Virus genome (UHGV): UHGV-0175824
Source of the DNA: a virus
Length of the DNA stretch: 16,817 bases
Reading direction: 5' to 3' (one strand)
The notes beneath the pieces are model-generated. The model saw only the letters and a list, made by a program, of their open reading frames with translations. It searched no databases and was not told the origin of the DNA. How positions within the stretch are numbered: position 1 is the stretch's first letter; every line of letters begins with the position of its first letter. The position numbers were made by a program, and so were the translations under genes. Below, one piece after another: positions 9,008 to 11,407 of the stretch.

Positions 9008-11407
9008 TTATTTTAATATCCATCCGGTATTTCCTGTTCCTGTTTTTTTTTGATACCAATCACCATTATAATCAATGTACATTGACCCCTGAGGTGCGGT
9101 CACAACACCCTCAGGTGAACCGGAGCCTCTATAAATTCCAAAGAGAGTTGTACCTCTTACTTTCTCGTATGCAAACAACAAACCATCTGAAGCCCTTCTG
9201 ATACGCAACGGTTCGTGCTCTGAGTCCGATGCAAATGTAGTGGTGCCGTTTGAATCTGTTTCCCTGGAAAAACTTCCATTTGTTCTTGTTCCTTCAATGA
9301 TCGAATTTGGGTAGTTTGGATCATCAGATGAATGTAACCTAATATATGAACTATTTGATGCTGATACCCCCCTACCCCTTAAAATCAATCCCTTAAATGA
9401 TGACGTAAATAGTGCCTGGATTGAGCCATAAACAGTGTTATCACTACCGTTTTGCTGATCATATATTCTTAGTCTTGAGCTATTATCATACATAATAGCG
9501 TTGAAGTACTCACCAAGACGTTCGCTAAATGCAACAATATTAAAAGCATTGCGCCATCTAAATGATATATTTCGCCCGCTTTCTCCGGCATCTACACCTG
9601 CATTACTTGAAGCATTGGTTATGCCAGAATTAAGGTTCTGCTCATCGTTGTTACCAGTCGCTGGTCGTATAGAGTAAATTGTCTTTTTCTCAAGAGAATA
9701 GCTACTTCCCCATCCATAATCTGTATCAGGACTCCAGTCTCCAGAATTTGCATCCTTGGTTGTTTCCACCCAATAAGAGCCATTTGATGGAGGGACACCA
9801 ATTATTCCAGAAGTCTCAATAGATGATGCAGCCCATCTCCTTCCACGCCAGTTTACAATATTAGCTCCTTCCCTCCATGTTTCTATGCAGCTTATAATTA
9901 TTTCTTCACCACGAATAGTTAGACCTTCCGGCTCAAATCTAGCTGGATTCCCAAGAGTTGGATGGTTAAGCAACCCATCGCGCCCATATTGCGACCTTGC
10001 ATCATCGATATCTAATTTTCTTAGTAAATTACCTGTTAAATCATATGTAAAGATATGATGCTTTCCAAAAGCATTAGTGCCTCCCTTAAGTATATGTATA
10101 TATCTTCCATCAGACGCAATACCTTGTACAGAGTAAGCACCTTCAGAAGGGGAGTCGCTCATTTCCCATACAAACATTGGGGTTGCTAATGTTTTATCTT
10201 CAAGTTTATCAATTGAGATTTTATCGTATATAAATACAATTCGTTTGGCGGCATCACTCTTTGGTGTATTAACCATTATTAAAAGACGACCGTCAGAAGA
10301 AATGGCAATTCCTGCACGATTATAATCTTGAAATGGGTGGCCGCTACCAGTAGCCCCCCATACATTATAACTTTTTACGTCAGACTGAGTAGTTCCTGCT
10401 CCTCGCCAAGTTATTTTACTAAACCCTTTGCCTGCAGACTCCCCATCTTCACCTGAATTGGTTACACTTGATGTATATAAATATACTTGACCATTCTCCA
10501 CCATTGCAGAAAGATCAAATCCGTGCCCAAGGTTTAATTCTGGAGAATACGCAACATGGTTTACTACCCTTCCATCATCATAAAGATTAAACTCAACAAT
10601 ACGAACTCTTTCTTTATCCGACCAGGTTGGCCCAACAGGCCGTTGTGTGACAAATAGTTTTTCAATGCCATTAACACGGCAATATGCGATCCCCTGTAAC
10701 GCATTTCTGGCATTAGGATAAATTTCTGTGTTTGTTTCTCCCTGAAAACCAAAAAAAGGTTCCATCATTTTTCTCTGCGCAAGTTTGTCAGTTTCAAGTA
10801 GACGAGAAACGGAAATAAGAGAGCCATTATCTGCAACAATCCTCCCAATACCTCGAGCAGAAGATACATCAACTTCGAGAGTATTTACTGCAAAATCGCC
10901 ATCAGGAACAAACATTCTATAGCCTGCGTTAGAGAATGCCTCAGTAGCGTCAGTTATTCCATCACTGATAGCCCCCCAACCGCGAACATCTTTGTCATCA
11001 CGCCATCGTGCAATCTGCAATTCGGGATATTTTTTAGCACCATCCGGGTCTTCTAACTGCTGCCGTAGCTGATCCGGGTCATACTTCAGCACATTATGGA
11101 AATAGAACTGCTGAGTGCCATATGCATCATATACAGCCATAGAATGGCCTTGAACAGTTACGAATTTGGCAATCTGCCCGTTATATACCGGATATCCAGC
11201 AGCGTTAATGATGATTGGTTGCGAAACAGGAACATGAGAGCCGTCTTCGTTCTCTACATAAACCTGAATCTGGTTTTCTGGACTTACCGGGTCAGTGTCA
11301 ATTTTTCCGATATAAATTTTGCCGTTGGCTACTGCTTTAAAAGAACGCGCCATAGTGAAGAGTTGCGAAGGCATACTCACTACAACATTGGCTGTAATGT
11401 CTGTCAT
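9008..11407 (-). CDS. Tailspike protein: P22 gp9-like N-terminal head-binding domain fused to a non-P22 receptor-binding domain
   Basis: 799 aa. The first ~115 residues match the P22/Sf6/HK620 tailspike N-terminus as I recall it. The remainder is unrelated to the P22 beta-helix domain and ends …[37 protein letters not shown]. Confidence 0.9.

Follow-up and report, generated by a model that had tools for sequence, protein, structure and literature searches.

The gene at 9008..11407 (minus strand) of the window, by which is meant the whole 16,817-nucleotide stretch of UHGV virus genome UHGV-0175824 analysed here, encodes a receptor-binding tailspike, built from exchangeable modules, that belongs to a temperate E. 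coli phage of the P22-like group (Lederbergvirus). The tailspike is a real mosaic of a conserved head-binding adaptor of the P22 type and a foreign receptor-binding body that is richer in AT; from about aa 139 onwards, the beta-helix endoglycosidase is replaced by a cap, a propeller platform, an insert, a tower and a GNTGW module. This receptor-binding unit is homologous to GA-1 gp12 and has the fold of the phi11 Gp45 and P68 receptor binders. Taken as a whole, the evidence is best explained by a propeller-lectin tailspike that recognises a shared epitope and is accompanied by receptor-editing neighbours, an account that we hold with moderate confidence. The features on which the argument draws are as follows.

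9008..11407, minus strand: complete tailspike gene (ATG start, 799 aa plus stop codon; ORF list and translation)
11069..11407, minus strand: head-binding (tail-hub docking) domain, aa 1-113 (PF09008 and the N-terminal structures of Sf6 and P22)
10970..11068, minus strand: neck or linker, aa 114-146 (nine-spike comparison, DNA identity, model)
10793..10969, minus strand: small N-terminal cap, aa 147-205 (family alignment, P0105 alignment, model)
9872..10792, minus strand: predicted five-bladed beta-propeller platform, aa 206-512
9707..9871, minus strand: insert of about 55 aa after the propeller, aa 513-567, putatively a CBM5/12-like mini-domain, as judged from the relative P0105
9173..9706, minus strand: predicted all-beta tower, aa 568-745 (model, GA-1 alignment, Foldseek)
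9011..9172, minus strand: GSPEG...GTGNTGW module, aa 746-799 (tblastn, alignment A1)
8274..8888, plus strand: SGNH/GDSL esterase gene, candidate receptor-modifying accessory gene (PF13472, E 1.6e-20; 33% GC)
7500..8156, minus strand: gene for a DUF1796 protein, second accessory gene (PF08795, E 6.6e-17; 34% GC)

The genomic context is that of a P22-type tailspike. The late operon runs in P22-like order through needle-knob, DUF2824, gp7, gp20 and gp16-like genes to the tailspike, with P22_gp7 (PF25688), Inj_translocase (PF16928), the Sf6-type needle knob and DUF2824 recognised directly upstream; the tailspike lies downstream of the gp7/gp20/gp16 ejection genes, as in P22-type phages, and the arrangement is syntenic with those of Gally, vB_EcoP-683R2 and Sf6. 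A preliminary description of this DNA had noted that the distal part of the gene is more AT-rich than the neighbouring ejection genes, and base composition bears this out: GC content is 40.2% in the receptor domain (GC3 27%), 43% in the head-binding domain and 49.5-51.3% in the ejection genes (GC3 43-47%). The same description had proposed modular exchange, and the breaks in DNA identity, the conservation of the neck and the shift in GC content all speak for an adaptor joined to a foreign body. A scan for promoters and terminators around the tailspike gene gave nothing above chance, and the window contains no tRNA.

At the N-terminus, the match of aa 1-113 to the Pfam family PF09008 (Head_binding) covers all 113 positions of the profile and scores 220.7 bits (cutoff 24; E 4.4e-66), and PDB sequences return Sf6 gp14 (E 2e-64) and P22 gp9 (E 5e-50), the N-terminal structures matched being 7sg7, 8tvr and 1lkt from Sf6 and P22. 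Counted from the alignments, identity over aa 1-113 is about 91% to Sf6 and about 76% to P22, while the head-binding region is 91.8% identical to that of HK620 at the DNA level; the near-identity to all three phages that had been supposed earlier thus holds for Sf6 and HK620 but overstates the likeness to P22. The adaptor had also been put at about 115 residues, a figure that fits the head-binding domain but falls short for the subgroup of P22-like spikes to which this one belongs. DNA similarity to HK620, Sf6 and epsilon34 ends at nt 339 (aa 113), whereas that to CUS-3 and vB_EcoP-720R6 runs on to nt 449 (aa 150). Moreover, nine P22-like spikes with unrelated bodies, the CUS-3 endosialidase among them, share an invariant neck (aa 114-146), so that the conserved adaptor of this subgroup extends to about 146 aa. 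The model places helices at aa 111-137, and the neck also matches residues 213-278 of 9vvr_A among PDB sequences; it is likely to be both a conserved extension of the adaptor and a recombination joint. One candidate clue to the body, phrog_8280 ("colanic acid degradation"), was set aside, its match covering only aa 1-206, that is, the adaptor and the cap.

Beyond the adaptor, the preliminary description had reported some 680 residues unrelated to the P22 beta-helix, and a search of PDB sequences accordingly found no match to the P22, Sf6 or HK620 bodies beyond about aa 117-118. Structure prediction, which it had called for, took the form of an AF2 monomer model built from a 19-sequence alignment; pLDDT is about 90 across aa 140-600 and 620-799, and the predicted structure comprises five four-stranded blades, that is, a five-bladed propeller, followed by a tower. 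The top fold matches of the model (Foldseek) are likewise propellers, and a beta-helix body was rejected. An endosialidase body was also rejected, given that the endosialidase domains PF12217 and PF12195 were found neither in the window protein nor in its relatives, that PF12219 is absent from the window protein, and that the endosialidase match in BFVD is poor (TM 0.19-0.21). The Foldseek alignments to the receptor-binding proteins of phi11, 80alpha, NF5 and P68 cover 630-700 columns, with E values of about 1e-11 for the first three and about 1e-9 for P68.

The smaller parts of the body were delimited by combining the model with alignments of relatives. At its start the cap carries the pectate-lyase-3-like motif GWGAxxDGxTDxTxAF; most of the 19 family members align over this region, and its pLDDT is about 86-90. 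Weak PF12708 matches occur at the position of the cap in relatives, and the alignment with P0105 begins at window aa 139. P0105 also suggests what the insert may be, since its residues 444-464, which match PF02839 (CBM_5_12) at 28.8 bits against a cutoff of 26.2, are aligned to window aa 517-537; in the hhalign alignment, the insert is absent from GA-1 gp12. The tower, predicted to consist of beta strands throughout (pLDDT 77-94 except in the loop 605-613), is aligned to GA-1 gp12 residues about 433-590 (hhalign). Pfam searches with the isolated neck-cap, insert and tower pieces of the window protein gave no match, NCBIfam gave nothing for the spike, and a profile made from the alignment of the whole family, searched against the PDB, matched only the S74 chaperone and head-binding parts, leaving the body unmatched.

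The C-terminal module had been likened to the tail-fibre ends of unrelated phages, and this likeness proved extensive: a tblastn search with the last 72 aa found matches in 232 phage records, at the C-terminal end of a tail fibre or spike gene, with Vibrio, Klebsiella, Acinetobacter, Achromobacter and Gordonia among the hosts. Relatives may instead carry a Peptidase_S74 chaperone at this position (8 of 19 and 19 of 53 members in two samplings); within alignment A1, which has 19 members, seven end with the GNTGW module and eight with S74. Pfam finds no PF13884 (Peptidase_S74) in the window protein, and PDB sequences yielded no solved homologue of the C-terminal 72 aa. Weak, repeat-summed PDB matches of these residues to designed Pizza (NHL-like) repeat proteins were taken as chance.

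The body is clearly homologous to GA-1 gp12. The alignment by hhalign (probability 100%, E 4.7e-81) spans 572 columns over the end of the cap, the propeller and the tower; by tblastn, 84% of the core aligns at 26.5% identity (E 6e-49), and Foldseek against BFVD gives E about 2e-42 with TM 0.52-0.56 at 4.3 A. No functional or structural study of the GA-1 gp12 body was found in the literature. The connection to the phi11-type family PF21311 is transitive, in that relatives pass its threshold while the window protein scores below it: six of 53 family members match PF21311 (best E 1.8e-7), the relative P0169 passing at 29 bits, whereas the window protein reaches 16.9 bits (E 0.005) under a cutoff of 23.7.

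The receptor-domain family, sized by an exhaustive HMM search (a word-indexed search returned fewer matches with the profile than with the single sequence), comprises 337 representative clusters with conserved motifs, or about 160-340 clusters at 50% identity. It is present in 15 of 50,697 phage genomes, and the GTDB species-representative genomes yielded no confirmed relative. E492 does not vary among 114 members, and conservation reaches at least 90% at Q238, R269, H295, T339, Q428 and E494. When phi11 Gp45 is added to the alignment (MAFFT --add), its polar residues fall on the conserved columns of the family with low statistical confidence (Q165-Q238, H209-H295, T248-T339, Q330-Q428, E385-E492 and E387-E494); hhalign gives the same Q165-Q238 and Q330-Q428 pairing in a comparison of the family with phi11 Gp45 that is itself not significant (probability 1.5%). 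In phi11, Gln165 and Gln330 line a proposed GlcNAc cavity, a binding site that was modelled after co-crystallisation of Gp45 with GlcNAc had failed (PMC4901313). Judging from strand positions and from that study, Q238, H295, Q428, E492 and E494 would lie together in one central cavity.

On the strength of the gene and the order of its domains, of their homology, fold and conservation, and of the hosts and linked genes observed here, a mechanism may be proposed. The head-binding domain and neck (aa 114-146) would dock the spike onto the tail hub as a presumed trimer, an assembly suggested by the conserved head-binding domain, the prediction itself being of a monomer. The propeller of each subunit would then offer a polar cavity (Q238, H295, Q428, E492 and E494, together with R269 and T339) that may bind one sugar of a polysaccharide on the host surface, in the way proposed for phi11 with GlcNAc on teichoic acid, so that the spike would act as a lectin-type adhesin.

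To our knowledge, the functionally characterised P22-like tailspikes (P22, Sf6, HK620, CUS-3) are all enzymes, to which a pure adhesin would be an exception. The propeller might accordingly be a true depolymerase in which the conserved Glu, Glu, His and Arg of the central cavity cleave O-antigen or capsule as a glycosidase, lyase or phosphodiesterase, the phage burrowing to the outer membrane as those four phages do; this we consider a serious but unlikely alternative. The invariance of polar residues from Bacillus to E. coli phages could equally be explained by catalytic or by structural roles, and the conservation of E492, E494, H295 and R269 across 114 members from very different hosts would suit a shared chemistry better than a diversity of ligands. 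In addition, the CUS-3 endosialidase is a propeller enzyme on the same adaptor, and n-bladed propellers are an established fold class among the depolymerases of Klebsiella prophages (PMC12491483). However, the body matched no glycoside hydrolase, lyase, esterase or other CAZy-type family in Pfam, NCBIfam or PDB sequences, and the same conserved residues occur in phi11 Gp45, which, like the P68 fibre and other proteins of the phi11 Gp45, P68 and GA-1 gp12 type, has binding as its sole documented role (PMC4901313, PMC6795507). The label "depolymerase" given to this domain in the preliminary description is therefore not sustained: the body is not a beta-helix, lacks an enzyme-family match and has a predicted platform-tower fold like that of these binders.

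The distribution of the gene among hosts bears on the same question. It had already been sequenced in the phages vB_EcoP-683R2 and Gally, to which the tailspike is 98.8% and 96.8% identical in nucleotide sequence, and the preliminary description had named full-length identity to a characterised tailspike as decisive against its reading; the identity is there, but neither of these spikes is characterised. No publication on the activity of the window tailspike protein was found, and PHROG 16355, matched end to end, is annotated "unknown function". Among 5426 complete E. coli genomes, 44 carry the gene, including at least 16 of serogroup O102 and at least five of O83. Most carriers belong to one O102 lineage, which we take to be ST405, so that the host distribution is partly clonal. 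Strain 631, considered as a third serogroup, is probably O102, its Gnd, Ugd and WzzB proteins being identical to those of an O102 strain. The O83 and O102 lysogens differ in their O-antigen gene clusters, and yet the receptor domains from an O83 host and an O102 host show only about six residue differences, which argues against recognition of one O-antigen repeat and would be unusual for the repeat-specific endoglycosidases of the depolymerase reading. Under the lectin reading, the target would probably be a small or shared epitope.

The predominance of prophages from a single clonal lineage among the carriers, together with the report that Gally forms no visible plaques (PMC9928086), might suggest a decaying prophage remnant or functionless chimera whose domain structure is biologically meaningless. 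This is highly improbable: an intact frame of 799 codons is found in 44 complete genomes, two phage records and a 262-member protein cluster, substitutions are few and scattered over the whole protein, and motifs are conserved throughout the 337 representative clusters of the family. Gally, whose spike differs from the window protein at 17 aa, moreover yields over 1e8 virions per mL and can lysogenise an LF82 strain from which Gally has been deleted (PMC9928086).

Beside the tailspike lie two low-GC accessory genes, an SGNH esterase and DUF1796 pair that is seen with this type of receptor domain in two kinds of phage unrelated to each other. In a P0003-type, siphovirus-type prophage, the pair stands in the same order and orientation beside a 62-65% identical receptor domain, the SGNH and DUF1796 proteins being 48% and 54% identical, respectively, to their counterparts at the same places. 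The P0003-side SGNH copy has a clear Sec signal peptide, conserved residues of the SGNH protein were found upstream of the RefSeq start, and by these sequence features the esterase is probably exported. Relatives of the SGNH gene occur in only six of 50,697 phage records and a DUF1796 homologue only in that of vB_EcoP-683R2, while the IMG/VR loci found with DUF1796 belong to the same two lineages. NCBIfam gave nothing for DUF1796, and PADLOC gave nothing for either gene. Elsewhere in the family, esterase domains are fused to two members, GDSL in P0169 (E 1.7e-17) and SASA in P0136 (E 2.5e-25), and hexapeptide acetyltransferase genes follow the relatives P0017 and P0012. The pair would probably act as prophage-expressed receptor editors rather than as parts of the virion.

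A more specific version would be a split system of binding and destruction for an O-acetylated sugar, in which the spike binds while the SGNH esterase of the lysogen deacetylates the receptor and blocks superinfection, the target being an O-acetylated residue common to several serogroups, such as one on enterobacterial common antigen, colanic acid or capsule. The constant order and orientation in which receptor domain, SGNH and DUF1796 occur as a trio in podovirus and siphovirus prophages, at 48-65% identity, the great rarity of both accessory genes, the esterase fusions, the acetyltransferase neighbours and the spread of carriers over more than one serogroup are all consistent with it. We nevertheless regard it as rather doubtful, given that the trio is seen in two independent lineages only and could have hitch-hiked after one block transfer, that Gally is infectious with the same receptor domain in the absence of the pair, that DUF1796 has no assigned function, and that acetyl-modifying genes are common beside spikes of all types, for example the O-acetyltransferase of Sf6 and neuO at CUS-3. 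The uncharacterised genes of the O83 and O102 O-antigen clusters, neither of which has a Pfam domain, contain no acetyltransferase domain, which leaves the idea of an acetylated O-antigen without support there; we also know of no O-acetyl group on the candidate receptors of the carrier strains. A still more far-reaching proposal, which we offer as speculation and judge to be improbable, is that of a cassette portable between podoviruses and siphoviruses, comprising a non-cutting lectin spike for a small, possibly O-acetylated, HexNAc-type shared epitope, a lysogen esterase that erases this epitope, and DUF1796; the target might then lie outside the O-antigen repeat altogether. The logic would be that of the haemagglutinin-esterase of influenza C and some coronaviruses, here split between virion and prophage.

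The host range of P22-like phages is usually inferred from the tailspike, which is assumed to be a beta-helix enzyme matched to one O-antigen. The present spike breaks with that assumption, as it carries a receptor-binding architecture of Gram-positive phages and is found almost unchanged in O102 and O83 strains. Propeller platform-tower receptor binders have so far been studied only in Staphylococcus and Bacillus phages, and the present family has no characterised member in Gram-negative hosts. The carriers are clinically relevant, including the Crohn's-associated LF82 and, among the O102 genomes, clinical human isolates. Within macrophages, the Gally tail-spike gene ranks with the most strongly induced prophage genes of LF82 (PMC9928086). 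Knowledge of the ligand would improve the prediction of prophage host range, provide a new and possibly cross-serogroup binding module, and show whether a short-tailed phage crosses the O-antigen layer without a depolymerase.

Compared with the classical tailspikes P22 gp9, Sf6 gp14 and HK620 gp9, the window protein has a homologous head-binding domain, and its gene likewise follows the ejection-protein genes; module exchange at the adaptor end is known for tailspikes of this type. The three differ from it in lacking the neck to aa 146 and in having a right-handed beta-helix with an endoglycosidase site, in place of which the window protein has a five-bladed propeller and tower that carry no endoglycosidase signature. 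For a propeller that replaces the beta-helix on a P22-like spike, CUS-3 is the precedent: up to aa 150, head-binding domain and neck are common to both proteins (86.7% DNA identity), and the CUS-3 spike, too, is adjoined by an acetyl-modifying accessory gene, neuO. The endosialidases of CUS-3 and K1F, however, carry an S74 chaperone that the window protein lacks. Among enzymes, the five-bladed propeller glycoside hydrolases of GH43, GH62, GH32 and GH68 form the comparison class for its propeller.

With phi11 Gp45 and the receptor binders of 80alpha, NF5 and P68 (PF21311), the model shares a propeller platform followed by a predicted all-beta tower, at only 11-16% sequence identity. Where the phi11-type proteins have an N-terminal triple coiled-coil stem, a plug for the siphovirus baseplate, the window protein has its head-binding domain, neck and cap; the putative CBM5/12-like insert and the GNTGW module are added, and the host, unlike theirs, is Gram-negative and without teichoic acid. 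GA-1 gp12, the neck appendage of a Bacillus phage, keeps all the conserved pocket residues but has its own N-terminal attachment region, no counterpart of aa 513-567, and a terminal Peptidase_S74 chaperone in place of the GNTGW module, PDB entry 3gud having matched the S74 part of the family profile. Two further receptor binders belong to the same propeller family, namely the P0017-type E. coli P22-like tailspike (core about 33-35% identical), which differs in its S74 chaperone and hexapeptide acetyltransferase neighbour, and PGN829.1 gp49, the RBP1 of a Gamaleyavirus (core 45.8% identical). PGN829.1 has an N4-like branched-fibre system with an unlike N-terminal adaptor, although its lineage, as seen in the related 1057-aa P0007 with near-identical gene arrangement, also ends in the GNTGW module. 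Its RBP1 has been reported in prophages of O11, O83, O86 and O102 strains, and the authors considered its target likely to be other than the O-antigen (PMC10408124).

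The window spike is a modular tailspike with an exchanged receptor domain. It is encoded by a 799-codon open reading frame on the minus strand (9008..11407, ATG start; window ORF list and translation), and it stands in a P22-like late operon: the genes upstream of it on the same strand have Pfam matches to a tail needle knob of Sf6 type, DUF2824, P22 gp7, the gp20 injectosome translocase of P22 and a gp16-like protein. The gap between the gp16-like gene and the tailspike gene spans only 164 nt (window 11408-11571, 35% GC), so that the window phage has no Mnt-type immunity region there; in Gally, CUS-3 and vB_EcoP-720R6 this position holds Mnt and other small genes, and in CUS-3 also an antirepressor. 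The domain order of the spike is as follows.

Domains of the window tailspike
Residues 1-113, head-binding domain
Residues 114-146, neck
Residues 147-205, cap
Residues 206-512, predicted five-bladed propeller platform
Residues 513-567, CBM5/12-like insert, so labelled via the relative P0105
Residues 568-745, predicted tower
Residues 746-799, GNTGW module (GSPEG...GTGNTGW)

Residues 1-113 cover the whole Pfam Head_binding model (E 4.4e-66). Among PDB sequences they match the N-terminal structures of Sf6 gp14, at about 91% identity as counted from the alignment, and of P22 gp9, at about 76%. In DNA comparisons, similarity ends at nt 339 against HK620 (91.8%), Sf6 (88.5%) and epsilon34, and runs further, to nt 449, against CUS-3 and vB_EcoP-720R6. 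The neck is invariant across an alignment of nine P22-like spikes with unrelated bodies, and in this subgroup the conserved adaptor therefore comprises about 146 residues, with the joint lying within the neck. Residues 113-175, that is, the neck (window 10970-11068) and the start of the cap, also match residues 213-278 of 9vvr_A (E 2.6e-13), a solved 843-residue "tail spike protein" in whose chain the match is internal.

The receptor-binding part has a GC content of 40.2% (GC3 27%) against 49.5-51.3% (GC3 43-47%) in the ejection genes, which bears out the greater AT-richness proposed in the preliminary description; the head-binding domain stands at 43% (GC3 42%). A C-terminal motif common to the fibres of unrelated phages had likewise been proposed, and in 232 phage records the last 72 residues indeed match annotated tail fibres or spikes at their C-terminal ends, with hosts that include Vibrio, Klebsiella, Acinetobacter, Achromobacter and Gordonia, among others.

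A search with residues 120-799 returned about 20 clusters at 28-61% identity, in which the body is joined to Head_binding, a T7 tail-fibre N-terminus, a tail-collar fibre N-terminus or no adaptor, and ends either in the short GNTGW module or in a Peptidase_S74 intramolecular chaperone. The AlphaFold2 model built on the alignment of these relatives has a pLDDT near 90 in residues 140-600 and 620-799 but models the N-terminus poorly, because the alignment is shallow there; it predicts five groups of four strands between about residues 209 and 512 and an all-beta region after them. In Foldseek searches of the PDB, this model matched the receptor-binding proteins phi11 Gp45, 80alpha RBP and NF5 RBP (E about 1e-11) and the P68 tail fibre (E about 1e-9), and in BFVD it matched gp12 of Bacillus phage GA-1 (E 2.3e-42, TM 0.52-0.56, 4.3 A over 538 columns). 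Profile comparison confirmed GA-1 gp12 as a homologue of the window body (probability 100%, E 4.7e-81, 572 columns), and gave no significance for the family against phi11 Gp45 (probability 1.5%). PF21311, the phi11-type propeller platform, is matched by 6 of 53 family members (E down to 1.8e-7); since the window spike itself scores 16.9 bits, below the cutoff of 23.7, while relatives pass it, the link to the phi11 family is structural and transitive. The mosaic reading of the spike was right, and the P22-type beta-helix is replaced by a predicted platform-tower receptor binder. GA-1 gp12 differs in having no counterpart of residues 513-567; Pfam gave no match for this insert in the window spike, whereas in P0105 the equivalent stretch, which aligns to window residues 517-537, scores above the CBM_5_12 threshold at 28.8 bits.

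As a sequence the spike is already known; as a protein it is uncharacterised. The same gene occurs at 98.8% nucleotide identity in Escherichia phage vB_EcoP-683R2 (683R2) and at 96.8% in phage Gally, and a search of 5426 complete E. coli genomes found it in 44, chromosomal every time. The spike belongs to a protein cluster of 262 member sequences and matches end to end PHROG 16355, a family annotated as "unknown function". Of the prophages in the Crohn's-associated strain LF82, Gally is the most active; its virions are podoviruses, produced at more than 1e8 per mL and able to lysogenise LF82 deleted for Gally, and in macrophages induction of 6- to 40-fold was seen for its five rightmost prophage genes, the tail spike and a putative Mnt repressor among them, in a study that treats neither fold nor receptor of the spike (PMC9928086). 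A literature search for E. coli phage tailspikes built on a five-bladed propeller found no paper. The window as a whole (1-16817) is mosaic throughout: no phage record reaches 80% coverage, the best being Gally with 47% in 10 pieces. Its integrase (5589-6767) is of the IntS type, which uses argW in the E. coli carrier strain 7/2, and that of Gally differs. A receptor domain identical in protein sequence to that of the window is encoded on the IMG/VR contig IMGVR_UViG_2802429227_000006.

When 1.84 billion representative proteins were searched exhaustively with an HMM, 337 clusters passed a threshold of E<=1e-3 and 159 one of E<=1e-30, and nearly all of the matches listed are long proteins in which the offset of the core varies. 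Among 50,697 phage genomes, the propeller core occurs in only 15 records, with carriers comprising Gally and 683R2; the N4-like lytic phage Gamaleyavirus PGN829.1, where gp49, the first of two spikes, is 45.8% identical (L034, record 27639-30818); phage Pollock; a set of phages infecting E. coli and Raoultella whose genomes are about 44.5 kb long; Bacillus phage GA-1; and Tetragenococcus phage phiYA5_2. Metagenome contigs add a 62-65% identical copy of the receptor domain in a siphovirus-type prophage (P0003) and a 33-35% identical copy, carrying a Peptidase_S74 chaperone, in the tailspike of another kind of P22-like E. coli prophage (P0017). In three carrier genomes (NZ_CP195804.1, NZ_CM142668.1 and NZ_CP166713.1) the receptor-domain DNA matches at two places each, which may reflect two prophages with a window-type spike or a duplication.

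Serogroups were called from the RefSeq annotation of O-antigen polymerase and flippase. NRG 857C is O83, LF82 is O83 by cluster identity, and strain 7/2 is O102; the O83 cluster was found in 35 genomes and the O102 cluster in 107. The 40 carriers listed include at least 16 of O102 and at least 5 of O83, or about 14-15% of each serogroup, against at most about 0.4% among all other genomes, a pattern to which clonal inheritance contributes. The O-antigen clusters themselves are not alike: O102 carries rhamnose genes and a GlcNAc-PP-undecaprenol 4-epimerase, both absent from O83. Gally and window spikes are separated by 17 residue differences, 11 of them in the receptor domain, and the receptor domains of Gally (O83 host) and of an O102 strain by about 6. 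RBP1 of PGN829.1, which we take to be gp49 and which is thereby a member of the window propeller family, has prophage counterparts at identities above 99.5% in O11, O83, O86 and O102 strains, and a receptor other than O-antigen was suggested for it (PMC10408124). Given this spread and the nearly identical receptor domains in O83 and O102, a small or shared epitope fits better than any one O-antigen repeat.

Between the spike and the integrase lies a segment of 29-36% GC with two genes.

Gene pair beside the spike (33-34% GC)
Within 7500-8888, plus strand (opposite to the spike), SGNH/GDSL esterase
Within 7500-8888, minus strand, DUF1796 protein

In the siphovirus-type prophage (L009, L019/L032), the 62-65% identical receptor domain is followed by the same pair, with order and orientation kept, at identities of 48% for the esterase and 54% for the DUF1796 protein. 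The L009 esterase has a clear Sec signal peptide, and the RefSeq start of the E. coli copy looks too far downstream, because the conserved region reaches upstream of it. This start (178-residue homologue) corresponds to the window ATG at 8352, the residues before it that are conserved with the L009 copy (window 8274-8351) include PPYRMRES and APYKMRVS, and an alternative ATG at 8274 would give the esterase the hydrophobic N-terminus MFLLSIPFFSFA. Relatives of the DUF1796 protein occur in 1 of 50,697 phage records, 683R2 itself, and those of the esterase in 6; in IMG/VR, the DUF1796 loci found all fall within the same two lineages, the window type and the siphovirus-type prophage. The family has further ties to acetyl chemistry: two members have a fused carbohydrate esterase domain, GDSL after the propeller in P0169 (residues 687-880) and a SASA domain of sialate-O-acetylesterase type before it in P0136 (residues 447-686), and a hexapeptide acetyltransferase gene follows the P0017 spike on the opposite strand (L020-L022) and also neighbours P0012 on an uncharacterised metagenome contig (L025). 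Since Gally is infectious with the spike but without the pair, virions do not require the pair. Acetyl-modifying accessory genes are frequent beside tailspikes of every kind, and no recognisable acetyltransferase was found in the O83 and O102 O-antigen clusters. As a lead rather than a conclusion, the association suggests a prophage-expressed, receptor-modifying function tied to this receptor-domain type.

Across 114 family members, E492 is invariant and conservation reaches 90% or more at Q238, R269, H295, T339, Q428 and E494; within a subset of 53 members, no variation occurs at Q238, H295, Q428 or E492. In the AlphaFold2 model these residues lie where a third strand begins, or else at, or immediately ahead of, the first strand in blades 1, 2, 4 and 5. 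Such positions in propellers form the rim of the central cavity, where the strand positions would place the conserved residues. Adding phi11 Gp45 and GA-1 gp12 to the family alignment paired them as follows.

Residue pairs, window spike and phi11 Gp45
Q238 with Q165
H295 with H209
T339 with T248
Q428 with Q330
E492 with E385
E494 with E387

GA-1 gp12 keeps the equivalents of all six, and hhalign gives the same pairing for phi11 Q165 and Q330, within a nonsignificant comparison (probability 1.5%). These residues bear on whether the spike binds its receptor or cleaves it. A carboxylate pair with a histidine and an arginine, kept from Bacillus to E. coli phages, would be in keeping with a common chemistry, hydrolases commonly use the five-bladed propeller fold, and to our knowledge all characterised P22-like spikes are enzymes. 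However, the pocket residues are common to phi11 Gp45, the closest structures are binders, and no hydrolase, lyase or esterase family in Pfam, NCBIfam or PDB sequences is matched by the spike, which leaves the initial designation "depolymerase" unsupported. An enzymatic spike is rated doubtful, and we lean slightly towards an adhesin.

The cavity of the phi11 protein, lined by Gln165, Thr211 and Gln330, was proposed to hold the GlcNAc of wall teichoic acid, although soaking with GlcNAc failed (PMC4901313), and P68 has been described in the same terms (PMC6795507). The most economical reading is that the predicted pocket would be a sugar-binding site across the whole family. As far as the databases and literature searched show, the platform-tower class of phi11 Gp45, P68 and GA-1 gp12 is undescribed in Gram-negative phages. 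The weight of the finding lies in the spread over serogroups, the esterase linkage and the clinical carrier lineages, together with a receptor-domain homology that crosses the divide between Gram-positive and Gram-negative hosts.
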